The notes under the pieces: model-generated
The model's database searches: none
What the model was told of the DNA's origin: nothing
Seen by the model: only the letters and a program-made list of their open reading frames with translations
NCBI RefSeq assembly: GCF_000010625.1
Contig: NC_010296.1
Span: 1,440,001 to 1,472,000 of the forward strand
DNA from: Microcystis aeruginosa NIES-843
Lineage (GTDB): Bacteria; Cyanobacteriota; Cyanobacteriia; Cyanobacteriales; Microcystaceae
Direction of reading: 5' to 3'
Length of the DNA: 32,000 bases
In this document: positions 1,874 through 32,000 of the stretch, in pieces
Numbering within the stretch: the stretch's first letter is position 1
Layout of the letters: every line of letters starts with the position of its first letter
Made by a program: the position numbers and the translations under genes

Positions 1874-3296
1874 GGTAGGGCTGTTTCATTCTCCCATCAG
1901 AATATCAAAAGTAAAAGCGATCACTGTCTTTGTAAAATGAGGAGTGACCGGCAACTTTTCAAATATATGTTGAGCTTAATAGAAAAACTGAAACAAGTCA
2001 AGGACTTTCGGAAAGATAAAGGAAAAAGACACCCTTTATGGATAGTATTAGTAGTAATAATACGGGGAACAATGCTAGGATACTCAGGTTATAGAGAGCT
2101 AGGAGAGTTTGCTAAAAATAATCGGCACAGGCTCAGTCAAGAATTTAACATAATTCCAGAAAGAGTCCCATCCTATTCAACAATTAGAAGGGTAATGATG
2201 GGAGTTGAATGGCAGATTTTGTTAAAAATGTTTAAGGAATGGGCATTACAAGAATATGGACAAAGAAGTGATATAAATTGGCTAGACATAGATGGAAAAA
2301 GTCTCAAAAACACTCTAAAGAATCCTAACAATGAACAAGAAAATTTTATTATGTTTGTCTCATTGTTTAGTCAAGAAAGTGGCTTGGTATTACACTTAAA
2401 AAGAATTGAAAACAAAAAAGGGTCTGAAATCGACGAAGGTCAAGCTATAATTGAGGATTGCACTCTTCAAAATAAAGTTTTTACTGGGGATGCTTTACAC
2501 TGTCAGAAAAAAACAATCAGCTTAATAGCCAAGAGTAAAAATGACTATGTTATCACCGTTAAAGGAAATCAGAAAAATCTTTATAAGCGAATACAAGACC
2601 TGAGTAATTCCTCAAAGCCAGAAAGTTGTTTTCTTGAACAAGACAATAGTCATGGACGAAAAATATCCAGAAAAATAGAAGTTTTTAAAGTGAGGAAAAA
2701 TGAAAGACAAGGGTTTGAAAATCTGCGCCGAATTATTAAAGTAGAAAGAAGGGGTAGTCGCGGGGATAAAACTTATGAAGAAACAGCTTACTATATCAGT
2801 AGCCTAACCGAATCCGCCCAAGTATTTGCTAAAATTATTCGAGGACATTGGAAAATAGAAAATCAGTTACATTGGGTAAAAGATGTAATTTTTGAGGAAG
2901 ATAAAAGCGAGATAAGTGATTTTCAAGCGGCCAGCAATTGGTCAATTCTCACAACTATAGGATTGAATCTTTTCAGAGGTTTGGGTTTTCTCTCAATAAC
3001 AGAGGGACAGAGGTGGTTAGCTGAACGTTGGGAAAAACTGATAGTTTTATCGACGTAAGAAGCAGAAAAATTAGCTAAATTAACAGGATGTACTCTCAGA
3101 AAATTTGAAGAGAGATAGGCTTTTAGTGGCTTGGAAACAAGCTTTATCAATTTATTCATAATCAATATTGGCAGAGGATTAAAGATTAGTTATTGTCACT
3201 AACTCTTTTGATTAGAAAAAGATAAACTTGAGAATTTTCATTCAAATTTATTGACTCAAAATCAGCTGTACTTAATTTAAATGAATCAACCCTACC
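1874..3296 (+). mobile_element. ISAs1-family insertion sequence (about 1.42 kb) with terminal IRs and 8-bp target duplication
   Basis: IRL GGTAGGGCTGTTTCATT (1874-1890) versus IRR reverse complement GGTAGGGTTGATTCATT (3280-3296). A direct repeat CTTATCAA sits on both flanks (1866-1873 and 3297-3304). A single transposase ORF lies inside. Confidence 0.8.
1937..3058 (+). CDS. ISAs1-family (H-repeat-associated type) DDE transposase
   Basis: 373-aa ORF. The N-terminus has VKDFRKDKGKRHPLWIVLVVIIRGTMLGYSGYRELGEFAKNN. The rest has IDGKSLKNT.., FTGDALHCQKKT, and a C-terminal RGHWKIENQLHWVKDVIFEEDKS motif typical of ISAs1/IS4-like transposases. Confidence 0.8.
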   Translation: MRSDRQLFKYMLSLIEKLKQVKDFRKDKGKRHPLWIVLVVIIRGTMLGYSGYRELGEFAKNNRHRLSQEFNIIPERVPSYSTIRRVMMGVEWQILLKMFKEWALQEYGQRSDINWLDIDGKSLKNTLKNPNNEQENFIMFVSLFSQESGLVLHLKRIENKKGSEIDEGQAIIEDCTLQNKVFTGDALHCQKKTISLIAKSKNDYVITVKGNQKNLYKRIQDLSNSSKPESCFLEQDNSHGRKISRKIEVFKVRKNERQGFENLRRIIKVERRGSRGDKTYEETAYYISSLTESAQVFAKIIRGHWKIENQLHWVKDVIFEEDKSEISDFQAASNWSILTTIGLNLFRGLGFLSITEGQRWLAERWEKLIVLST

Positions 3297-3586
3297 CTTA
3301 TCAAGGGGGATCCCCCCGCCTATCGGCACCCCCCTTATCAAGGGGGATCCCCCCGCCTATCGGCACCCCCCTTATCAAGGGGGATCCCCCCGCCTATCGG
3401 CACCCCCCTTATCAAGGGGGATCCCCCCGCCTATCGGCACCCCCCTTATCAAGGGGGATCCCCCCGCCTATCGGCACCCCCCTTATCAAGGGGGATCCCC
3501 CCGCCTATCGGCACCCCCCTTATCAAGGGGGGCAGGGGGGATCGAACCTAAAATCCATTTTTAATTTAATTATAACCAGCTACTTA
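3297..3586. repeat. Outer part of the right IR arm: 37-bp tandem satellite (about 6.7 units) plus terminal A/T-rich segment
   Basis: TTATCAAG recurs at 3298, 3335, 3372, 3409, 3446, 3483 and 3520, an exact 37-nt period. The unit is CCCCCCTTATCAAGGGGGATCCCCCCGCCTATCGGCA. The end 3533-3586 mirrors 871-925. Confidence 0.95.
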
Positions 3587-3881
3587 AAATAAGCTCAACA
3601 GGAGAAAAATTTAGAAAGATTATCGAAAACAATTGACAAAAATCTCAGCAATGTCTGTCCGACGGCAATTGTTGAAACCACGGAAGTTAGCACTAACAAT
3701 TAGTCAAAGCGCAAAATTCGCCTAACCTAATCATAGGTTAAGCGACAAACAAGATCAGCAAGAGATTTCGATTTTTTTACCTTTCTGTATTTCTTTGTTA
3801 ACAAAACTTAACAATTATCGGCAAAATTTCGCTTGCTTTTATCGGGAGATTTTGCGATAATATTTTTAAAGGATTTTATTC

Positions 3882-20992: not shown

Positions 20993-22285
20993 ATGCTCAT
21001 CGGATTTAGTGTCGGCAATTATCGCTCTTTTAAAGATGTAGTCACTCTCAGCATGGTAGCTGCGGAGGATGCCTGTGGTAATGATGAGCTTGATAAAAAT
21101 AATGTTTTTAAGGTTAATCAACAATTTAGTTTACTGAAAAGTGCCGCTATTTATGGAGCAAATGCCAGTGGTAAGAGTAATTTAATTCTGGCATTCAATT
21201 TTATGCGACGGTTTGTCATGAATTCTGCAAAATTACAAATCACTGACAAAATAGATGTGGAAGACTTTAGATTAAGTACCGAAACTGTTGATAAATCATC
21301 CTTTTTTGAAATAGTTTTTCAGCTAAAAAACAAAACTTATAGATATGGATTTGAAGTAACTCAAAAGCGAGTAGTTTCCGAATGGTTATTTTGTACGCCC
21401 AGAAGTCGTGAAACTCAAATTTTTAATCGGCAAGGCGATAAAATAGAATATAGCAAAAATATTGAACAAGGTAATATACTAAGAGGATTGACAAAAAAAA
21501 ATACTCTGTTTTTATCACTAGCGGCTCAATTTAATAATTCTCTAGCGGTGGAAATTGTCTCTTGGTTTAGTCACTTAGGTGTTGTGTCTTTTTTAGATGT
21601 GGAATTATTAAAAGCGATTACGCTTGAGCATCTTTCTAATAGACAAGATTTGATTGATGATGTGACTAAGTTAATTAAAAAATTAGATTTAAGTATTGAC
21701 AATCTCAACCTAGAAACAGAAACCAGAAAAATTTCCTTAGACAGTCTCCCGCAAGATCTACCGGATGTTGTCAGAAATATCATCAGTCACTCTAGCGGTG
21801 AAATAAAGTCCGCTACCATAAAAACCTATCATCCAAAGTATGACTCAACAGGTAAAATGATTGAGTTAGAAATTTTTGATATGGACAAACATGAATCTGA
21901 TGGAACTAAAAAGATTTTGGCTCTGTCAGCACCGATTTTAGACACTTTGCAAAGAGGGGAAGTTTTAGTAATTGATGAATTGGATGCCAGACTTCATCCT
22001 TTAATGACTAGAAATATAATCGAATTATTTAATTCTCAGAAAACTAATCCCAAAAATGCTCAACTTATTTTTACTACTCACGATATTAATTTACTTAGTC
22101 ATAAATTTTTAAGGAGGGATCAAATTTGGTTTACCGAAAAAAATCATCAAGGAGCAACAGATTTATATTCTTTGGTGGAATTTGCTGATATTAATAATAA
22201 TAATACCTTTGAAAAAGATTATATTCAAGGTCGTTATGGAGCAATACCTTTTATTGGTGATTTAAGTACAATTATTGGTAATTAG
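20993..22285 (+). CDS. AAA/ABC-type ATPase (AAA_15/AAA_21-like), AbiLi-like
   Basis: 430 aa. FSVGNYRSFKD.., Walker A GANASGKSN, Walker B VLVIDELDARLHP, H-loop-like IFTTHD, and a C-terminal YIQGRYGAIPF. This architecture is typical of the ATPase partner of RloB proteins. Confidence 0.8.
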   Translation: MLIGFSVGNYRSFKDVVTLSMVAAEDACGNDELDKNNVFKVNQQFSLLKSAAIYGANASGKSNLILAFNFMRRFVMNSAKLQITDKIDVEDFRLSTETVDKSSFFEIVFQLKNKTYRYGFEVTQKRVVSEWLFCTPRSRETQIFNRQGDKIEYSKNIEQGNILRGLTKKNTLFLSLAAQFNNSLAVEIVSWFSHLGVVSFLDVELLKAITLEHLSNRQDLIDDVTKLIKKLDLSIDNLNLETETRKISLDSLPQDLPDVVRNIISHSSGEIKSATIKTYHPKYDSTGKMIELEIFDMDKHESDGTKKILALSAPILDTLQRGEVLVIDELDARLHPLMTRNIIELFNSQKTNPKNAQLIFTTHDINLLSHKFLRRDQIWFTEKNHQGATDLYSLVEFADINNNNTFEKDYIQGRYGAIPFIGDLSTIIGN

Positions 22286-22286
22286 T

Positions 22287-22931
22287 ATGAGTAACAACAG
22301 GAATACTTCCGATTATTTGCGTCGCCAAACTAAGACTAGAGAAACAAGAAAAAGATTTTTAATTGTTTGCGAGGGAGAAAAAACTGAAGTTAACTATTTT
22401 AAGGCTTTTACTGTTCCTAAGAAAATTGCAGTTACGGTGAAAGGTGAAGGTAAAAATAGCTTGAGTTTAGTCAACAAAGCTATTCAGATTATAGATAATC
22501 TAAAACAAGATGACTCATTCGATCAAATCTGGTGTGTTTTTGATAAAGATAACTGTTCTAAAGAGCAATTTAATCAAGCAGAAGGACTGGCTAAAGAACA
22601 AAATATCAAGATTGCCTATTCTAATGAAGCTTTTGAAATTTGGTTTATTTTACACTTTCAATATCTGGATATTGCCACATCCCGAAGTGAATACCCAAAA
22701 ATTTTAAATACTCAGATGAAAAAGTGTAAATTATTAAACGAAAAAGAACAATATGCAAAAAATCGAGAGGATATGTACGAAAAATTAAAGCCATACCAGA
22801 CAACAGCAATCACTAATGCAGCAAAACTTATTCAAGATAGAGATGAAGCCAAAAAACATCCTTTTGATGCCAATCCCTCAACCACAGTACAGGAATTAGT
22901 GCAAGAACTTAACATCAATAGTCGTCCTTAA
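22287..22931 (+). CDS. RloB-like (Toprim-related) protein, AbiLii-like
   Basis: RFLIVCEGEKTEVNYFK, IWCVFDKD and AYSNEAFEIWFILHF are RloB family motifs as I recall them. The ATG is 1 nt after the ATPase stop; the track starts at an upstream TTG (22275). Confidence 0.8.
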   Translation: MSNNRNTSDYLRRQTKTRETRKRFLIVCEGEKTEVNYFKAFTVPKKIAVTVKGEGKNSLSLVNKAIQIIDNLKQDDSFDQIWCVFDKDNCSKEQFNQAEGLAKEQNIKIAYSNEAFEIWFILHFQYLDIATSRSEYPKILNTQMKKCKLLNEKEQYAKNREDMYEKLKPYQTTAITNAAKLIQDRDEAKKHPFDANPSTTVQELVQELNINSRP

Positions 22932-24669: not shown

Positions 24670-27600
24670 TTAAACCCCTGTTGCGATAAATGCCGTCCAA
24701 TAATAGGGATTGGCAAAGGGATAGGGTTCACGTTTAACCGCAGCTTCTAATAAGTCTTGGAATTTTCTTCTATCCCGTTTACTTTCAAAGACTCGATCGA
24801 GTAATTGTTGGAATTTTTGACTATTTTTAATTCTGGCTAATTTTTTACTGTTCAATGTTCTTAACCATGTTTGTGTATTATTTAAAACAATGGCAATACT
24901 TCCTTGATCTTGGATAGAAATCCGTTTAAGATCGTGATAAAATTTAGTCATAAATAACGTAGTTGCTAGGGGATCTACTGTCCAAAGGGTGCTAACAACA
25001 CTAGAACTACCTGCAAATAGAAAACCACTAGGTAAACCCACATATTCATCACTAATACTATCAGCTTTACTTTCAATTATACCACTTTCACAAGCAGAAA
25101 AAGTAACTAAGCGGCATTCTCTTAAGTCAAATTTTTCAAATACTTCTGCTAGGGTTAGGTTAGCTGATTTTCCTAAATTACCTTCTGGATCTGCTAAGAA
25201 TAAAGCAGAGTCTCTAGGGGAGTCATCATCAAATTTACCATGACAGGAAAAGTGAAGACAATGGGATGCTTGTAATTCTTGACGACGGTTTTCTAGGGTT
25301 TGTTCTGATGCTTCTAATTCCCCAATAATAATGGTTTTTTCAGTGGCAAATCCTTGACTAATTCTCTCGATTTCTAGATTTGCACCTAAGAGAGGTTTTA
25401 GGTCTTTTCTGGTGGGGTTTTTAATGGCAAAAAGACGAGTAAAGTTTTCTCGCTGTGATAATTTTACCAGTTTTAAAAGTTGGCAACTGGGAACATATCC
25501 TACCCCTTTAGAAAAGCATTGATAGAGAAATTGTCCGTTTTCGATTGGTAAACAATGAAGGGGAATAATATGTAAAAACCAATGGGGAATTAGGATGAGA
25601 CGAGAGCAAGATTGAGGAATCAGTTCTAACAGTTCATCAATGTGGAGAATTTCTGAGAGTTGATTTAAACAATCATTAAGATTATTAATCCACTCGGTTT
25701 TATTATTTTCATAAGCATCACGATAATTTTTAATAAAATTAATCAATTTTTCTCGATCTTCTGCTGAAGATTGCCAAACTTTAACCCCTTTCACCTCACT
25801 ATTCCCCCCTTTTGAAGGGGGGTTAGGGGGGATCAAACCTTTTGAAGGGGGGTTAGGGGGGATCAAACCTTTTGAAGGGGGGTTAGGGGGGATCAAACCC
25901 TCATTAGTAACAATAAACGCCATAATACTATCCCCTGCAATATACCATTCTAAGATGGCAGTATCTTGATCAATTAAGGATTGAATCTCACTTAAGGGAA
26001 TGGTTTGAACTTTTTGAGTTAAGCTAAAAGTGGGATCTATGGGGGTTATTTCACGATCAATGAATTGATTTAATTCTTGTTTTAAATGATTAAGGTGAGT
26101 ATAGTCATTTAAGATGGGTTGTTTTTGTTCATCTAGGGTTAAAGTTACTCCCCGATTGCGGGTTTGTTCTTGGATCGCTAACTGTTGTTCTTCCCCAATA
26201 ATGGCACGACGGAGGCGATCTAATTCGGTAATAATAGTTGGGGGGATATTACCTTTAGGATAGATATCTCGGTCAGTAAGCAATTGGACTAGATAGCGGG
26301 TTTTGCTGCGTTCAACGTATTCTAAGGCGCGATCTGGTTGATTGAGGTTGAGATAGGATTGAACGATGCCATGATAAACATCCATTGCATCGGAGAGGAT
26401 TTCTTGTTGTCGTTGGGGGTTTAAGGCTTGGAGTCGGGTATTTTCTACTGCTTCGATGGCTAAGTTGTAGCCTTTGATGGCGGTTTCCCAGTCTTCGATC
26501 AGGTTAGCAGTAATTCCTAAGTTACGTCCTGTTCGTAAACAGTCTATGGGAAAAGCAGTCGGGGTAAATACTTCTAAAGACAGGTTATAAGCTGCAATAG
26601 CTAACTCTAGATTATCTACCCTTTCCCCAAGAATGCGATATAGATAAGCAGTCCCTAGATTATTTTGTGACTTTGCCCATTGTTCAGGAAAGCTATCACG
26701 GGTATATACTTCTAAAGACAGTTTAAAAGCTGCAATAGCTAACTCTAGATTATCTGCCTCTTCCCCAAGAATGCGATATAGATAAGCACCCCCCAGATTA
26801 TTTTGTGACCTTGCCCAATCTTCAGGAAAGGCTTCACGGGTATCTACTTCTAATGACAGATTATAAACTGAGATCGCCTTCTCTAGATTTTCAGCCTTTT
26901 CCCCTCTGATGCGATATAGATAAGCATTCCCCAGATTATTTTGTGACCTTGCCCAATTTTCAGGAAAGGCTTCACGGGTACAGACTTCTAAAGACAGGTT
27001 ATAAGCTTTAATCGCTAACTCTAGATTATCTGCCCTTTCCCCTCTGATGCGATCTGTATAAGCTAACCCCAGATTATTTTGTGTCGTTGCCCAATATTCG
27101 GGAAAAGCTTCACGGGTTCTTACTTTTAAAGACAGGTTATAAGCTGCGATGGCTAACTCTAGATTATCTGCCCTTTCCCCTCTGATGCGATTTCTATAAG
27201 CATTACCCAGATTATCTTGTGTACCTGCCCAATCTTCAGGAAAAGCTTCACGAGTGTATACTTCTAAAGACAGGTTATAAGCTTTAATCGCTAACTCTAG
27301 ATTATCTGCCCTTTCCCCTCTGATGCGATTTCTATAAGCATTACCCAGATTATTTTGTGACCTTGCCCATTCATCAGGAAAAGCTTCATGGGTATATACT
27401 TCTAATGACAGGTTATAAACTGCGATCGCTTTCTCTAGATTATCTGCCTTTTCACCTCTAATGCGAGTTCCATAAGCAGACCCCAGATTATTTTGTATCC
27501 TTGCCCAATCTTCAGGAAAAGCTTCACGGGTATATATTTCTAATGACTGGTTATAAGCTGCGATGGCTAACTCTAGATTATCTGCCCTTTCCCCTCTGAT

Positions 27601-28488
27601 GCGATATAGATAAGCATTCCCCAGATTATTTTGTGTGTTTGCCCATTCATAAGGAAAGCCATCACGGGTATATACTTCTAATGACTGGTTACAAGCTGCG
27701 ATCGCTAACTCTAGATTATCTGCCCTTTCCCCTCTAATGCGATTTCCGTAAGCAAACCCCAGATTATTTTGTATCTTTGCCCATTCATAAGGAAAGGCTT
27801 CACGGGTATAGACTTCTAAAGATAGGTTATAAGCTGCGATCGCTAACTCTAGATTATCTGCCCTTTCCCCTCTGATGCGATAATTATAAGCAGTCCCCAG
27901 ATTATTTTGTGTCATTGCCCATTGTTTAGGAAAGGCTTCACGGGTATAAACTTCTAACAGGGTGTGATAACCTGTAATAGCAATTTCCAGATTATTAGCC
28001 CGACTTCCCAAGGGAAACTGTTTAATCTTATTACATAAATTTTGAATCACCCTAGCAATAACTGCCACATCTTCTGCCTTCCTTTGAGAAAACACATTTC
28101 TAGCGTATTGTTGCAACACTTGGGCAAAAGTATCATCTAACAGATGTTGACAGCGTTGTAGGATAGGATAAACCACCGCAGGAGCAGGATCATTACTCTC
28201 ATGTTCTGCTTGTAATAATTCTAATAAAAACTCCTGATATTCCTCTATACTTCCCGCTTGAGGGTTGAGATATTGCCCCAACTGTTGCGCCATATTCCGT
28301 AACCAAGCAACAGGATTATGATTTCCTTGTTGTTCTAACCAAGTTGCATAGTCTTCCATCACCTGCAAAAATTGGGGATCAATTAATTCCTGATTTGCTT
28401 GTAGAATATTATTGAGTTCCTCATCATCAGTACAAGCGAGCAACTTTTCTATTAAATTAACATAAGCTTGGGCGCGTTGTTCATTCAT
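24670..28488 (-). CDS. Large TPR-like repeat / CHAT-domain (caspase-like protease fold) protein with a conserved N-terminal ~95-aa helical module
   Basis: 1272 aa. The N-module is MNEQRAQAYVNLIEKLL..LQAE. About ten 46-aa repeats follow (W..QNNLG.AY..RIRGERADNLELAIAAYN.SLEVYTREAFP). The C-terminal CHAT domain has a His (LHFSCHGKF) and Cys (VTFSACESG) dyad. Confidence 0.9.
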   Translation of the reverse strand: MNEQRAQAYVNLIEKLLACTDDEELNNILQANQELIDPQFLQVMEDYATWLEQQGNHNPVAWLRNMAQQLGQYLNPQAGSIEEYQEFLLELLQAEHESNDPAPAVVYPILQRCQHLLDDTFAQVLQQYARNVFSQRKAEDVAVIARVIQNLCNKIKQFPLGSRANNLEIAITGYHTLLEVYTREAFPKQWAMTQNNLGTAYNYRIRGERADNLELAIAAYNLSLEVYTREAFPYEWAKIQNNLGFAYGNRIRGERADNLELAIAACNQSLEVYTRDGFPYEWANTQNNLGNAYLYRIRGERADNLELAIAAYNQSLEIYTREAFPEDWARIQNNLGSAYGTRIRGEKADNLEKAIAVYNLSLEVYTHEAFPDEWARSQNNLGNAYRNRIRGERADNLELAIKAYNLSLEVYTREAFPEDWAGTQDNLGNAYRNRIRGERADNLELAIAAYNLSLKVRTREAFPEYWATTQNNLGLAYTDRIRGERADNLELAIKAYNLSLEVCTREAFPENWARSQNNLGNAYLYRIRGEKAENLEKAISVYNLSLEVDTREAFPEDWARSQNNLGGAYLYRILGEEADNLELAIAAFKLSLEVYTRDSFPEQWAKSQNNLGTAYLYRILGERVDNLELAIAAYNLSLEVFTPTAFPIDCLRTGRNLGITANLIEDWETAIKGYNLAIEAVENTRLQALNPQRQQEILSDAMDVYHGIVQSYLNLNQPDRALEYVERSKTRYLVQLLTDRDIYPKGNIPPTIITELDRLRRAIIGEEQQLAIQEQTRNRGVTLTLDEQKQPILNDYTHLNHLKQELNQFIDREITPIDPTFSLTQKVQTIPLSEIQSLIDQDTAILEWYIAGDSIMAFIVTNEGLIPPNPPSKGLIPPNPPSKGLIPPNPPSKGGNSEVKGVKVWQSSAEDREKLINFIKNYRDAYENNKTEWINNLNDCLNQLSEILHIDELLELIPQSCSRLILIPHWFLHIIPLHCLPIENGQFLYQCFSKGVGYVPSCQLLKLVKLSQRENFTRLFAIKNPTRKDLKPLLGANLEIERISQGFATEKTIIIGELEASEQTLENRRQELQASHCLHFSCHGKFDDDSPRDSALFLADPEGNLGKSANLTLAEVFEKFDLRECRLVTFSACESGIIESKADSISDEYVGLPSGFLFAGSSSVVSTLWTVDPLATTLFMTKFYHDLKRISIQDQGSIAIVLNNTQTWLRTLNSKKLARIKNSQKFQQLLDRVFESKRDRRKFQDLLEAAVKREPYPFANPYYWTAFIATGV
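25808..25897. repeat. 30-bp x3 perfect tandem repeat inside the CHAT gene (encodes GLIPPNPPSK x3)
   Basis: CCTTTTGAAGGGGGGTTAGGGGGGATCAAA is repeated three times head to tail, in frame. Confidence 0.95.
26570..27960. repeat. About ten near-identical 138-bp tandem units (coding for the 46-aa TPR-like repeats)
   Basis: The marker CTAACTCTAG recurs at 26601 and 26739, with CCTTCTCTAG at 26877 (138-nt spacing). Long identical stretches occur between units. Confidence 0.9.
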
Positions 28489-28550
28489 TGTCTGTACTGT
28501 GATTAGAATGATTGAATGAGGGACTATGATGTTTTTTGGCGGATGACTCT

Positions 28551-28556
28551 ATTATA
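28551..28556 (-). promoter_or_regulatory. Candidate -10 box (TATAAT on the minus strand) for the CHAT gene
   Basis: ATTATA on the plus strand lies 63 nt upstream of the ATG. I saw no good -35. Confidence 0.25.
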
Positions 28557-28613
28557 GGATGAGTCCCCTTGATATAGGGCGATTATGACACAGAATGCTA
28601 TAGAGGATATTAA

Positions 28614-28835
28614 CTATAAACGCTCAAACTCATCAACCCTTAATCCCGCTTGCCTTAAAATACTGCTAATTGTACCGATTGTTACCTCCTTATAACAGGG
28701 AACAATCGTTGTCATTTTTCCTTCGGGAGTATCCTTGGCAAACTTAACATGACTCCCCTTTTGACTAATAACTTCAAACCCTGCCGCTTCCAACTTGCGT
28801 TTAATCTCACGATAAGATAAAGGCTTAAGCGGCAT
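28614..28835 (-). CDS. hicA: HicA-family toxin (mRNA interferase)
   Basis: 73 aa. SYREIKRKLEAAGFEVISQKGSHVKF is a typical HicA/YcfA motif. It overlaps the upstream hicB. Confidence 0.85.
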   Translation of the reverse strand: MPLKPLSYREIKRKLEAAGFEVISQKGSHVKFAKDTPEGKMTTIVPCYKEVTIGTISSILRQAGLRVDEFERL

Positions 28836-29031
28836 TGATTTCTACCTCTATCTTCTGTAATTGGGGAATAACTGTCGCACAAGGCGGTTCAAAATGTAAT
28901 TCTAAAGCCTCTTGCAGATTGTTTAACGCCTCGGTTTCTGTTTCCCCTTGACTAGCAACATCAACCTCTAAACATTGGGCAACAAACCAATTATCTTCTT
29001 GAAAAATTCTCGCTGTAAGTACCTGTCTCAT
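28825..29031 (-). CDS. hicB: HicB-family antitoxin (UPF0150-like)
   Basis: MRQVLTARIFQEDNWFVAQCLEVDVASQGETETEALNNLQEALELHFE. An alternative upstream ATG is at 29058 (ORF-track start). Confidence 0.75.
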   Translation of the reverse strand: MRQVLTARIFQEDNWFVAQCLEVDVASQGETETEALNNLQEALELHFEPPCATVIPQLQKIEVEINAA

Positions 29032-29143
29032 TTTCACTTTCCTGATTGAGCTTTCCATGATTATAGGTCAGGCTAGAATGACAGTCAATTAAATAATCAT
29101 ATAGATCATGCTTTAGACTTCTACATAACAAGATTCTATACTT

Positions 29144-29215
29144 TATATCCCGTAACCAAGCAACAGGAGTATTATTTCTTTGTTCTTCTAACCCTGTTGC
29201 ATAGTCTTCCATCAT
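29144..29215 (-). pseudogene. Remnant of the CHAT-type N-terminal module (codons ~45-66) with its leader
   Basis: M-MEDYATGLEEQRNNTPVAWLR aligns to VMEDYATWLEQQGNHNPVAWLR of the CHAT protein. The first ~43 codons are deleted. After WLR the frame runs into unrelated sequence. Confidence 0.75.
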
Positions 29216-29290
29216 TGTCTGTACTGTGATTGATGTGATTATGTGATGAACTGTGATTTTTTTTGAGAGAGACCAACCTTATGATTTAAC

Positions 29291-29319
29291 GTGATACAAT
29301 AAATATTCGTGATTGTCAA
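29291..29319 (-). promoter_or_regulatory. Candidate sigma70-type promoter (TTGACA-17 nt-TATCAC) of the module leader, copy 2
   Basis: The minus strand reads TTGACAATCACGAATATTTATTGTATCAC. An identical block occurs at 31395-31423. Confidence 0.4.
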
Positions 29320-29383
29320 GGGGGGTCGCTGCCAAATTTGTTTGATATATTCCAAGTTTCTGCCTTAGAACATATCAAACAAA

Positions 29384-29698
29384 TTACTTTTCTGCACAAA
29401 TAACTGTCATTACAGCAACTTCTTTGTCCAATTGATCTCCTATTTCATCTTCAACAACGTCCAGATCGTAATCCATTTGTAATCCCAGCCAAAATCGCGG
29501 TGACATATCAAAATAACGAGCTAACCGAAGAGCTATATCCGCCGTGATACACCGCTTTCCGTGAACGATTTCGTTAATACATTGTTCAGGAACTCCAAGA
29601 GCCAGAGCTATTTGATTCTGACTAAGGTTCATTGGCTTGATAAATTCCTCTAAAAGAACCTCACCGGGATGAATTGGCATTAGTTTATCTTCATTCAT
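29384..29698 (-). CDS. higA: HigA-family antitoxin (XRE-type HTH)
   Basis: IHPGEVLLEEFIKPMNLSQNQIALALGVPEQCINEIVHGKRCITADIALRLARYF is the HigA signature. Confidence 0.88.
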   Translation of the reverse strand: MNEDKLMPIHPGEVLLEEFIKPMNLSQNQIALALGVPEQCINEIVHGKRCITADIALRLARYFDMSPRFWLGLQMDYDLDVVEDEIGDQLDKEVAVMTVICAEK

Positions 29699-29707
29699 TA
29701 TTTTACC

Positions 29708-29989
29708 TCAATGATAATCAACGATTTCTACGTCTAGAGCATCACCGTTTTGCCAGACAAAGCAAATTTGCCATTGATCGTTAACCCGAATGCTATATTG
29801 ACCTTCCCTGTCACCAACCAGACGTTCCAATCGATTTGCTGGTGGGACACGAAGATCTTGCAGGGTTTCCGCACGATTAAGCATCCGCAATTTTCGCAAT
29901 GCCACTTGTTGGATATCTAATGGCAATTTACGCGAATGTTTACGTTCAAAAACTTTTTGAGCTTCTTTATCTTTAAAGTTTTGGATCAC
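29708..29989 (-). CDS. higB: HigB-family toxin (RelE/ParE superfamily, killer protein)
   Basis: IQNFKDKEAQKVFE...LRKLRMLNRAETLQDLRVPPANRLERL.GDREGQYSIRVNDQWQICFVW. The toxin-first order is typical of higBA. Confidence 0.88.
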   Translation of the reverse strand: MIQNFKDKEAQKVFERKHSRKLPLDIQQVALRKLRMLNRAETLQDLRVPPANRLERLVGDREGQYSIRVNDQWQICFVWQNGDALDVEIVDYH

Positions 29990-30196
29990 TCTCTAAACAA
30001 TTTCTTATCCTACTTTTAAGTATATGACGTAAGGATGCTCCAATGGCAGAACTGGTTGGGGAACAGGCCAGACAGGGACTTCTGCGAATGCGTCTGGGGC
30101 CAAGATGACGCGACGACAAATGATCGCGGTAGCCTTCATGTTGGACATACTAACAACACCTTAGCCTATTGTCAATGTCCCCAACAGTTAAAAACG

Positions 30197-30447
30197 CCTC
30201 ATATTCTTCTATATTTCTCGCTTGAGGGTTGAGATATTGCCCAAAGTTTTGTGTTAAATCAATCTGTATGGTTATTATTGTATCCTTATTATTTTAACCC
30301 CGTTGCATAGTTTTCCATCACCTGCAAAAATTGAGGGTAAATTAATTCCATATTAGCTTGCAGAATATTAGTTCGTTCCTCATCATCAGCAGAAGTGAGC
30401 AACTGTTCAATTAAATTAACATAAGCTTGGGCGTGTTGTTCATTCAT
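30197..30447 (-). pseudogene. Decayed copy of the N-terminal module (frameshifts/stops) with intact start and leader
   Basis: 30300-30447 aligns to 31170-31319 by eye (…CATAGTTTTCCATCACCTGCAAAAATT…GAGCAACTGTTCAATTAAATTAACATAAGCTTGGGCG). 30197-30240 matches the module codons ~75-90. The middle part is scrambled. Confidence 0.7.
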
Positions 30448-30565
30448 TGTCTGTACTGTGATTGATCTGATTATGTGATGGATTGTGATTTTTTCGAGAG
30501 AACGACTCGATGATATTTAGATAAGCTTGGGTGCGTTTTTCGTCCATAACCTTAATCCGATGCTT

Positions 30566-30778
30566 TCACAAAAGTTTTTTAAATTCTTCAATAGACATTC
30601 CGGCACCTTTAATAATTGTTCCCATTGTATAAGCATTAATTGGATTAGCTCTGGGAATTGTTAAGATATGCTCTCCATCAGTCATTGTAATATGTTTACC
30701 CTGTCGAACAATCCTAAATCCTGCTTTTTCAAAGGCTTTAATGGCTCGTTGATGATTAATTCCGGGAAGACTAGGCAT
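30566..30778 (-). CDS. hicA: HicA-family toxin
   Basis: 70 aa. HQRAIKAFEKAGFRIVRQGKHITM..ILTIPRANPINAYTMGTIIKGAGMSIEEF. It overlaps the upstream hicB-containing ORF by 8 nt. Confidence 0.75.
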   Translation of the reverse strand: MPSLPGINHQRAIKAFEKAGFRIVRQGKHITMTDGEHILTIPRANPINAYTMGTIIKGAGMSIEEFKKLL

Positions 30779-31319
30779 GATTTAATTCAACTTCCACATA
30801 ACAAGATTCTACACCTTGATTCAATTCCTCGGCAACTTCTAAATAAGACACAATAGCATCTTGAATATTATTGAGAGCTTCTTCTTTTGTTGTACCTTGA
30901 GAAGCACAGCCGGGTAAACCGGGACACCAAACAGCATATCCTTCTTCTGTTTGCTTAAGACTGACTTTATACTGCATATTTTTATAATAATAATCGTTGT
31001 CAGTTATTATAGCACGGCCATCATTAATCTCTGCTTCTGCTTGTAATACTTCTAATAAAAACCCCTGATATTCCTCTATACTTCTCGCTTGAGGGTTGAG
31101 AAACTGCCCCAACTGTTGCGCTATGTTCCGTAACCAAGCCGCAGGATTATTATGTCCTTGTTGTTCTAACCCTGTTGCATAGTTTTCCATCACCTGCAAA
31201 AATTCGGGATCAATCAATTCCTGATTAGCTTGCAGAATCTTATTGAGTTCCTCACCATCAGCAGAAGTGAGCAACTGTTCAATTAAATTAACATAAGCTT
31301 GGGCGCGTTGTTCATTCAT
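30771..31319 (-). CDS. Fusion ORF: CHAT-type N-terminal module (aa 1-96) joined in frame to a HicB antitoxin core (aa 115-182)
   Basis: The N-terminal 95 aa differ at 17 positions (my count) from the CHAT protein N-terminus. The C-terminal MQYKVSLKQTEEGYAVWCPGLPGCASQGTTKEEALNNIQDAI is the HicB/UPF0150 signature. An internal ATG at 30977 could give a stand-alone HicB. Confidence 0.8.
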   Translation of the reverse strand: MNEQRAQAYVNLIEQLLTSADGEELNKILQANQELIDPEFLQVMENYATGLEQQGHNNPAAWLRNIAQQLGQFLNPQARSIEEYQGFLLEVLQAEAEINDGRAIITDNDYYYKNMQYKVSLKQTEEGYAVWCPGLPGCASQGTTKEEALNNIQDAIVSYLEVAEELNQGVESCYVEVELNHA

Positions 31320-31394
31320 TGTCTGTACTGTGATTGATGTGATTATGTGATGGACTGTGATTTTTTTTGAGAGAGAGCGACCTTATGATATAGT

Positions 31395-31423
31395 GTGATA
31401 CAATAAATATTCGTGATTGTCAA
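31395..31423 (-). promoter_or_regulatory. Candidate sigma70-type promoter (TTGACA-17 nt-TATCAC) of the module leader, copy 4
   Basis: The minus strand reads TTGACAATCACGAATATTTATTGTATCAC, about 75-100 nt upstream of ATG 31319. Confidence 0.4.
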
Positions 31424-31500
31424 GGACAAAGGATAACCTAATCATAGTCGATCATTCAATCATTCTAATCATAGTTTAGACATTATTAAGGAGAAGGACT

Positions 31501-31761
31501 ATGGACATCACCATTCATCTTAGCCAAGAACAAAGGGAAAAACTCGCCTACATCCAACAACATAGCGATCAGGATATCACTACCCTGCTCAATCAAGTTA
31601 TTGAGCAACAATATACCAAACTACACCCGCGTAACTCAGAGCCTCTTAAAGTGCTGAAAGAAAGCGGTTTTATTGGGTGTGGACAAGGTTCGCCCGATCT
31701 TTCTACTAACTATAAAACCATCCTCAAGGAAGAATGGTCAGCCAAACATGATTATAGTTGA
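31501..31761 (+). CDS. VapB-like antitoxin (RHH-like N-terminus)
   Basis: 86 aa with an AAGGAGAAGG SD. ITIHLSQEQREKLAYIQQH..LLNQVIEQQY, then GFIGCGQGSPDLSTNYKTIL, which is typical of cyanobacterial PIN-partner antitoxins. It overlaps the PIN gene by 14 nt. Confidence 0.65.
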   Translation: MDITIHLSQEQREKLAYIQQHSDQDITTLLNQVIEQQYTKLHPRNSEPLKVLKESGFIGCGQGSPDLSTNYKTILKEEWSAKHDYS

Positions 31762-32000
31762 TACAGGCTTCTGGTTGGCCCTCGCCAATGAGCAAGATAA
31801 TCATCATCAACAAGCACAGCTTGTAATTCAAAGATTGCGAGAACCCCTAATAACAACCTGGTGTGTTGTCACCGAAACTTGTTACCTTTTGCTAACTCGT
31901 ATCGGTAATCATGCTCAACTGCTATTTATCCAAAATTTCTTAGCAGGTGGTTTTGAAGTATTTGAATTACAATCAAATCATGTTAGACGAATGCAACAAC
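31748..32000 (+). CDS. vapC: PIN-domain toxin (VapC-like), 3' end cut by window edge
   Basis: MIIVDTGFWLALANEQDNHHQQA..ITTWCVVTETCYLL has the PIN acidic residues in their expected context. The frame is open to the window end. Confidence 0.75.
   Translation, partial: MIIVDTGFWLALANEQDNHHQQAQLVIQRLREPLITTWCVVTETCYLLLTRIGNHAQLLFIQNFLAGGFEVFELQSNHVRRMQQ

Follow-up and report, generated by a model that had tools for sequence, protein, structure and literature searches.

In the Rhs/CDI (contact-dependent inhibition) orphan arrays, such as the main and orphan cassettes of Salmonella rhs (PMC3967940), small toxin/antidote cassettes each carry a piece of the conserved portion of a large adjacent gene, and homologous recombination between the fragments deletes, duplicates and swaps cassettes, giving rise to differences between strains. 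In Microcystis, a ParDE-like toxin-antitoxin (TA) module lies within 152-bp direct repeats adjacent to the gene for the MaOC1 orthocaspase, which cleaves the antitoxin of the module (Klemencic et al. 2021, PMC7935541). Chromosomal TA islands and integron arrays likewise amass TA operons as small, same-orientation cassettes at hypervariable sites. Here we analyse a 32,000-nt stretch of the Microcystis aeruginosa genome (the window; coordinates are positions in it), in which the promoter/leader and first 14-105 codons of a gene for a 1272-aa TPR-CHAT protease occur five times between 28189 and 31425, alternating with predicted TA cassettes. With a probability of roughly two in three, we read this locus as a strain-variable tandem TA array that separates the TPR-CHAT gene body from its native promoter and is shuffled by homologous recombination and gene conversion.

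Compared with the Rhs/CDI arrays, the arrangement here is mirrored: it is the 5′ fragment, with promoter and leader, that is repeated, and the array lies upstream of the large gene. The cargo consists of autonomous type II TA operons with promoter-like sites of their own rather than in-frame toxin tips with an immunity gene, and recombination leaves the active domain of the large protein unchanged. With the MaOC1 module, the array shares the genus, a type II TA system beside a caspase-superfamily protease gene, direct-repeat brackets and strain-variable presence. The MaOC1 module, however, is a single ParDE-like unit downstream of a C14 orthocaspase, whereas three cassettes here lie upstream of a CHAT protease. 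Its 152-bp repeats hold the REP-like palindrome GGGCGAAGCATTCGGA (a 16-mer), which we found in only one of the loci related to the window (L023), while the array repeats are gene 5′ fragments; and antitoxin cleavage was shown there, whereas the present array is known from sequence. Unlike integrons, the locus has no integrase, attC or attI, and duplicated sequence of the target gene provides the homology. The original prediction, made from the window alone, held that no analogous system had been described, which is too strong, as Rhs/CDI orphan arrays and the MaOC1-adjacent module are close in logic. We found no published description of this Microcystis CHAT/TA direct-repeat array in the literature, and we regard it as a homology-scaffolded TA array.

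All array features are read on the minus strand, with vapB and vapC divergent on the plus strand (Table 1). In window order, vapBC is followed by promoter, leader and N-domain codons 1-105 fused to hicB, then hicA; by a 14-codon gene start (copy c), leader, a decayed stretch of codons 1-88 (copy b) and higBA; by promoter, leader and codons 44-66 (copy a), hicB and hicA; and by leader and the full N-TPR-CHAT gene. Self-repeat search and alignment bore out the predicted five-fold recurrence on one strand, with copies alignable well beyond short motifs. A 300-nt repeat spans 28189-28488, 31020-31319 (90%) and 30148-30447 (60%, gapless); a 115-nt promoter-plus-leader block is common to 29207-29321 and 31311-31425 (93%); and a 70-nt piece occurs four times, including 29145-29214 (90%). 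The 56-nt leader has four copies at 77-95% identity, the 41-nt gene start also has four, including 30507-30547 (78%), and the 19-mer AATCACAGTACAGACAATG, which runs across the leader/ATG boundary, has exactly four occurrences where 0.00 are expected.

The individual copies largely conform to their first description, with corrections. The copy fused to HicB (copy d) is intact and in frame across a 182-aa open reading frame (ORF) with a PF15919 match, copy b is decayed by stops and frameshifts, and copy c is a divergent gene start joined to the leader of copy b. Copy a has an in-frame 126-nt gap over codons 2-43, which is a true deletion because undeleted 116-aa alleles exist in L002, L003, L005 and L013; the CATCA/CATTCA microhomology proposed to flank it reduces to a perfect match of just 3 nt (TCA). 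The patch of hicB 3′ sequence said to follow copy a is present, although it is 28 nt (29117-29144 versus 30790-30817) with 25 of 28 positions matching, not some 35 identical nucleotides. The cargo behind copy b, taken for hicBA, is higBA (PF05015/TIGR02607). Intact 99/100-aa versions of copy b occur in L002, L003, L006 and L011. An Rfam scan of 28000-32000 gave a single sub-threshold mir-190 artefact, on the higA-distal hairpin, so that no known RNA family is recognised in the leader. A metagenome contig assembled independently (L001) agrees over 5.5 kb at 99.98% identity, and the unit order of the window recurs in L025 and L028; the arrangement is therefore not an assembly artefact.

All three cargo pairs are, from their domain matches, predicted type II TA cassettes. 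The antitoxin fused to the N-domain, HicB(F), matches PF15919 (E 1.3e-8) and adjoins a PF07927 HicA, as in a HicAB pair. The second predicted HicAB pair, nearest the CHAT gene, combines a PF07927 HicA (E 6.7e-17) with a PF24113 (DUF7387) antitoxin (E 5.7e-10) across an 11-nt gene overlap. The middle cassette is a predicted HigBA pair, with HigB at PF05015 (E 1.2e-22) and HigA at TIGR02607 (E 1.3e-31, 108 bits against a cutoff of 47.7). PADLOC matched no defence-system model to the CHAT gene or the TA genes, its sole identification being AbiL nearby.

To compare strains, related loci (L numbers) were drawn from contigs encoding the fusion protein, from a GTDB genome scan with the N-domain and from contigs encoding an identical HigB; window segments were mapped onto them, and units were defined by their internal junctions. 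Unit F is N(1-105)::hicB-hicA70; G is N(1-88)-GC-rich-higBA; H is N(1-66)-patch-hicB(DUF7387)-hicA73; X is N(1-28) with a small ORF; T is N-TPR-CHAT; and A is an N(1-74) stub, a 449-aa KAP/STAND-like ATPase and a TPR-CHAT gene with a different N-terminus. The chromosomal site is fixed, reading glgP - vapBC / array / TPR-CHAT - 136-aa gene - PNP gene, and segment mapping gives vapBC as the conserved left border in L003, L013, L016, L018, L025 and L032 (in L002, L025 and L032 the equivalent pair is annotated with the PIN family PF01850). At this one site, about 26 related Microcystis loci display at least 14 architectures, with cassette number running from 0 to 4 and order varying: F-c-G-H-T (window, L015, L028), F-c-G-H-A (L025), F-G-H-T′ (L005), H-F-c-X-G-T (L011), vapBC/H-F-c-X-A (L013), vapBC/H-F-c-X-G (L003, and L002 with hicA70 replaced after the fusion gene but otherwise alike), G-H-T (L029, L030, L033), vapBC/G-H-A (L032), vapBC/H-A (L016), G-H-A (L017), G-T (L006), F-T (L007), the cassette-free vapBC/A (L018), and longer arrays with an extra TumE-type TA module (L026-L028). 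In cassette-free L018, a TTGACA-N17-TATCAC-type block lies directly 5′ of the N-domain gene adjoining vapB.

This comparison confirms that cargo behind the module differs between strains in number, order and kind, and with it the proposed recombination hotspot. Copies a, b and c are clearly decaying, as they would be if one old tandem duplication had simply eroded in a fixed arrangement, but at least 14 architectures at one site, including cyclic permutations and a cassette-free state, refute that account, to which we give almost no credence; the locus is, as first proposed, not a simple duplication.

Table 1. Features of the array and its borders in the 32,000-nt window.
Feature	Position	Strand	Basis
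vapB (86 aa, 31501-31761) and start of PIN-domain vapC	31501-32000	+	ORF list
vapB-proximal spacer, with inverted copy (31441-31482) of the leader preceding the CHAT gene	31426-31500		inverted repeat I1, 42 nt, 88%
Module copy d: promoter-like block (TTGACA 31418-31423, N17, TATCAC 31395-31400) and leader	31320-31425	-	repeat search, alignment
Unit F ORF, 182 aa: N-domain codons 1-105 (31005-31319), 9-codon hicB 5′ stretch, then HicB	30771-31319	-	PF15919
HicB(F) own ATG; TGnTATAAT	30975-30977; 31006-31011	-	within unit F ORF
hicA(F) toxin, 70 aa	30566-30778	-	PF07927, E 6e-8; 8-nt overlap with hicB
Right flank of hicBA(F): 18-nt spacer and copy c (14 codons, MDEKRTQAYLNIIE, 30506-30547)	30506-30565	-	
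Leader b (30448-30505) and module copy b, N codons 1-88 with stops and frameshifts (30189-30447); left repeat of unit G	30189-30505	-	
Unit G cargo: GC-rich 5′ flank with promoter-like site (30147-30175), higB (29708-29989), higA (29384-29698)	29384-30197	-	
Post-higA spacer with 22-nt-arm hairpin (29335-29385)	29322-29385	-	inverted repeat I2
Module copy a: promoter block 29291-29319, leader, ATG 29215, codons 2-43 missing, homology to codon ~66	29145-29321	-	
Unit H cargo: 28-nt hicB(F) 3′-end remnant (29117-29144), TTGACT-17-TATAAT region (29060-29088), hicB, hicA	28614-29144	-	
Unit H hicB (DUF7387); hicA (73 aa)	28825-29058; 28614-28835	-	Pfam
LEAD_T, 125-nt right flank of unit H; likeness to native leader limited to last ~45 nt	28489-28613	-	
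TPR-CHAT protease gene, 1272 aa, array anchor	24670-28488	-	PF12770, TPR_12/TPR_10

Every unit keeps one fixed internal junction in every strain, N105>hicB in F, N88>GC-rich-higBA in G and N66>patch-hicBA in H, indicating that each arose once and then moved as a block. The post-higA hairpin spacer moves with unit G, lying in all strains 3′ of higA and 5′ of the PROM(26-66) segment and leader. LEAD_T accompanies hicBA(H); it precedes the fusion gene, not the CHAT gene, in L011 and is absent from L003, L013 and L032. The junction between units F and G forms a deletion series that starts with hicA70-c14-leader-N(1-28)-X-N(1-88) in L003, L011 and L013, passes through the hicA70-c14-leader-N(1-88) of the window, and ends in L015 and L005 with hicA70 followed by a chimeric c/b module (MDEKRPQAYVNLIE) that has a copy-c-like start (MDEKR) and a copy-b-like continuation. 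Crossing-over between adjacent direct repeats is expected to yield just such products. The orders F-G-H and H-F-G differ by cyclic permutation, a difference that unequal exchange, or excision followed by reintegration via the repeats, would be expected to produce.

The modules are also mosaic and do not group by unit class. Within codons 1-66, the four-gamete test is failed by 49% of informative site pairs, and a module copy often has its nearest neighbour in another unit class. Mean module identity is 0.920 within and 0.912 between classes, and the cargo is nearly invariant: among strains, hicBA(H) is 0.985 and higBA 0.990 identical, and in loci of this array hicA70 is 100% and hicB(F) 99-100% identical to the window, with the exception of L007 (94-95%). 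A PHI-type (pairwise homoplasy index) recombination test was not significant (p = 0.31), incompatibility being saturated even at adjacent sites (0.48 versus 0.49). The mosaicism is most simply explained by gene conversion, acting among the copies and probably also with other paralogs.

Each cassette is bracketed by direct repeats of the CHAT gene 5′ end, comprising promoter and/or leader and the first 14-105 codons. RecA-type unequal crossing-over and gene conversion among these 0.2-0.4-kb repeats would delete, duplicate and permute units, leaving copies a, b and c as decaying by-products, and the cassettes would act as ordinary self-stabilising or defence TA modules within a defence island. 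The best reading is that the array was built without a dedicated recombinase or a shared-promoter system. An integron- or shufflon-like site-specific system that inserts cargo behind a common promoter would produce cassette-sized cargo (0.5-0.9 kb) in one orientation downstream of a promoter-bearing module, which is what the array displays. However, no integrase- or recombinase-like ORF was found in the ORF lists of the 32-kb window or among the called genes of related loci. The junctions fall at differing codons (14, 28, 51, 66, 74, 88, 105) and share no motif, conserved recombination site or attC-like inverted repeat. A search for an attC-like site at each cassette end found none, the sole hairpin being I2 downstream of higA. 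The repeats, moreover, are 200-400-nt gene fragments rather than short sites, and the cargo have promoter-like sites of their own. We consider such a system very improbable.

The same mosaicism raises the possibility that the upstream partial copies serve as a gene-conversion reservoir varying the TPR-CHAT N-terminus, in the manner of pilS/pilE, with the cassettes merely stabilising the array. The four-gamete failures, a module more variable than its cargo and a ratio of nonsynonymous to synonymous substitution (dN/dS) of about 0.67 in the expressed copy would all fit. Yet the copies here are 5′ ends, some with a promoter block, that are decaying and dispensable: the would-be reservoir holds stops and frameshifts and is freely deleted, and some strains have no upstream copy or only one (L018, L006). 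Many genomic N-domain paralogs could supply equal variation, and no initiating element was found. This diversification role is accordingly improbable.

Promoter placement bears on the claim that a single shared expression module captures successive cargo. A promoter scan identified strong promoter-like sites inside two of the cassettes, TTGACT-17-TATAAT for hicB(DUF7387) and TTGACA-17-TAGTAT for higBA (Table 1), and a TGnTATAAT read from the sequence lies 28 nt upstream of the ATG of HicB(F) itself. That ATG is also the start of a free-standing 68-aa HicB in L023, L024, L026 and L034. The TTGACA-N17-TATCAC block is indeed common to copies a and d (29291-29319, 31395-31423), as first noted, but is carried by those two alone of the five copies. 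With a promoter-like site for each cargo, no recombinase or conserved site at the junctions, and a fusion lost in four of ten alleles that keep HicB, the shared-module or promoter-capture claim is poorly supported. The module copies are better read as duplicated target sequence, both substrate and by-product of homologous recombination, than as a purpose-built expression module.

The fusion itself was surveyed in 10 distinct F alleles. Its ORF is intact in six (the window, L002/L003/L004, L005, L011, L025 and L028) and lost in four, through a stop at codon 7 (L013), a stop at codon 68 (L026/L027) or replacement of the 5′ part (L015, L007); HicB is intact in all four broken alleles. The fusion point at codon 105 falls within the second conserved block of the N-terminal region, between the helix at 81-97 and a conserved VVYPILQ motif, and the fusion therefore looks accidental. 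N::HicB would then be an accidental read-through, with HicB made from its own promoter and ATG.

An alternative is that fusion and protease are functionally coupled, the N-domain acting as a homotypic adaptor through which N::HicB and N-only stubs dock on the TPR-CHAT protease, which in turn controls the TA systems. CHAT might, for example, cleave HicB and free HicA, so that the cassettes would serve the CHAT protein as effector arms. The intact, abundant fusion ORF in 6 of 10 alleles speaks for this reading, as does the presence of hicBA(F)-like cassettes beside N-domain/TPR-CHAT paralogs in L022, L023, L024, L007 and Rippkaea. The N core is, in addition, confidently modelled as an independent four-helix bundle (pLDDT 92). 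By analogy, MaOC1 cleaves the antitoxin of its adjoining TA module (PMC7935541), and the effector-associated-domain principle (PMC8195603) would offer a framework: as in those systems (Kaur, Iyer, Burroughs, Aravind; PMC7159879, PMC8195603), a small all-helical N-domain is carried by a caspase-like effector, and here it also stands on a second protein encoded close by, HicB. The N-domain, however, shows no sequence or fold match to described effector-associated or Death-like domains; no Pfam effector-associated-domain family was hit even at E<=1, and Foldseek returned no Death-like or significant PDB match. The HicB-borne copy is truncated, cutting the second conserved block, and often inactivated, the N part being lost and HicB kept in 4 of 10 alleles. 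Stub ends are scattered over codons 14-148 and the stubs are decaying, and among 80 long homologues the N-domain is partnered by TPR and CHAT only.

We therefore regard functional coupling as unlikely. Its specific form, in which N::HicB and the N-only stubs (90, 99/100 and 116 aa) bind TPR-CHAT by homotypic docking and activation destroys or sequesters HicB, unleashing HicA, is a shade less likely again. If it were true, the array would be a set of swappable TA effector arms of a caspase-like sensor, and module recombination would be how strains trade arms. By analogy, the MaOC1 precedent, together with the recurrence of hicBA(F) beside N-domain paralogs, keeps a CHAT-antitoxin link as a minority hypothesis.

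Several observations weigh against a recombination-shuffled array of independent TA cassettes. The intact fusion in 6 of 10 alleles, and the abundance of fusion alleles P0001-P0003 in metagenomes (33, 89 and 60 member sequences), exceed what pure neglect might predict; gene conversion from intact copies could maintain the ORF. The dN/dS values of 0.5-0.9 do not discriminate functional from remnant module classes, probably being confounded by gene conversion. Recombination is inferred from sequence comparison rather than directly observed at read level. A donor of the exact N105>hicB junction was not found among the loci, the founding events being reconstructed, and the hicBA(F) family stands beside N-domain/TPR-CHAT paralogs in four or five contexts, which could mean a functional link rather than co-mobility.

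Those contexts also suggest how the units of such an array may have been founded. The right flank of hicBA(F) is constant, both here and beside other N-domain paralogs, consisting of about 17-18 nt, the N-domain start codon and a few N codons. The spacing of ~17 nt and an ATG N-start recurs 3′ of hicA-like genes in L003, L005, L015, L007, L023 and the Rippkaea locus L034, with ACG in that place in L024. L023 carries an N′ fragment ending near codon 50, then hicBA, then 17 nt and an ATG N-start followed by a TTGACT region; a complete N′-TPR-CHAT gene (1123 aa) lies 1.6 kb downstream. L024 reads N′(1-51)-DUF433-hicBA. In Rippkaea orientalis PCC 8801, HicB and HicA are 81% and 91% identical to those of the window, and hicBA (L034:3860-4553) is fenced by a 123-nt direct repeat (89%) with a promoter-like TTGACA region, 600 nt upstream of a split N-domain/TPR gene adjoining a KAP NTPase. 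Separately, REP-like palindromes with GGGCGAAGCATTCGGA occupy L023:4500-5990, between the hicBA cassette and the N′-TPR-CHAT paralog, beside an ORF that we read, without a domain search, as a putative REP-associated tyrosine transposase (RAYT).

A cassette lying just upstream of another N-domain paralog would thus have been copied in to found each unit, with one illegitimate join inside N and one homologous join in the N start or leader. Template switching, during either repair or replication, may have brought the cassette in, as may a circle integrated in Campbell fashion; either route would duplicate the target. In unit H, the region 5′ of hicB(DUF7387) is homologous to the hicBA(F)-type right flank (alignment A6), and this homology, together with the hicB(F) 3′ remnant, would make unit H an F-H junction with most of F deleted.

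The anchor of the array is a TPR-then-CHAT protein comprising a four-helix N-domain (codons 1-74), a TPR array of ten 138-nt repeats (26562-27957; TPR_12, E 3e-25) and a C-terminal CHAT domain (PF12770, E 1.8e-42, residues 940-1271). It does not belong to the type III-E CRISPR Csx29 (Craspase protease) family by NF041237 (70.7 bits against a cutoff of 300), and the window ORFs include no cas genes. A large cyanobacterial family, represented by 599 clusters at E<=1e-3, has this N-domain as its usual N-terminus; TPR occurs in 50 and CHAT in 23 of the 80 long homologues, and a second profile search yielded mainly short stubs, with little further information on partner domains. The N-domain has no Pfam/NCBIfam family, a Pfam scan at E<=1 yielding sub-threshold unrelated matches alone. 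AlphaFold models of residues 1-200 and 1-78 predict a four-helix bundle over residues 1-74, then a short linker of lower confidence (mean pLDDT 67 across residues 71-80), beyond which lie further helical repeats. In Foldseek searches of these models against PDB the best E value was 1.2, among generic TPR/helical matches. Stubs of the N-domain across the pangenome and in Woronichinia end at codons 14, 28, 51, 66, 74, 88, 97, 105 and ~148, and are read as remnants rather than designed small proteins because their end points vary.

The anchor gene varies as well. A perfect 30-nt x 3.1 tandem repeat CCTTTTGAAGGGGGGTTAGGGGGGATCAAA at 25808-25899, in frame, encodes GLIPPNPPSK x 3; L016 has two copies of the repeat, and ORF 3281-3592 is made of similar G-rich repeat units. 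The anchor CHAT domains of L005 and L011 are 45-49% identical to that of the window. In L026 (7503-12137) the terminal CHAT gene encodes 1544 aa, with a DUF3110 match and a second partial N-domain copy inside the ORF, so that the anchor gene is itself mosaic. An alternative body behind the module, an N stub, a 440-449-aa KAP/STAND-like P-loop ATPase and a TPR-CHAT gene with an unrelated N-terminus, occurs in L016 (6453-11487), L013, L017, L018, L025, L027, L032 and Woronichinia (L037:5001-10462). We considered these as a true three-gene system and rejected the idea, the stub ending at codon 74 in Microcystis and at ~148 in Woronichinia.

The cargo and borders show further variation. In L005, L006, L011 and L017, an insert of ~590 nt lies between the GC-rich flank and higB codon 55, replacing the 5′ third of higB; in L026-L028 (L026:3607-4231) the segment encodes a TumE/HVO_A0114-type TA pair, and one cassette is therefore nested in, or displacing, another. 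The vapB-proximal spacer occurs once in the window and two or three times in L005, L017 and L018; L030 has several mapped copies, and in L029 (232-713) the unit has expanded to a 66-nt x 7.3 tandem array. A two-gene AbiL abortive-infection system (20993-22931, plus strand; AbiLi E 2.6e-104, AbiLii E 6e-30, PADLOC) is found ~2 kb past the CHAT gene 3′ end, placing the array in a defence island. ORFs 207-680 and 1937-3058 (plus strand) have, from their translations alone, without a domain search, the look of a TnpB/IS605-type fragment and an IS4-like transposase; these putative elements are ~25 kb away from the array and show no sign of taking part in it.

For annotation, hypothetical N-domain ORFs of 90-182 aa in Microcystis should be taken mostly as gene stubs. 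The locus is one of the most variable small loci of Microcystis, a possible strain marker and natural system in which to measure recombination and gene conversion. After MaOC1, it is the second example of TA modules fenced by repeats beside a caspase-superfamily protease, making a protease-antitoxin link testable. On the reading favoured here, a gene family present in many copies would lend its conserved 5′ end as portable homology, by which cassettes are copied between paralogous loci and permuted by ordinary recombination, and TA and defence islands can arise and be rearranged without mobile-element machinery.

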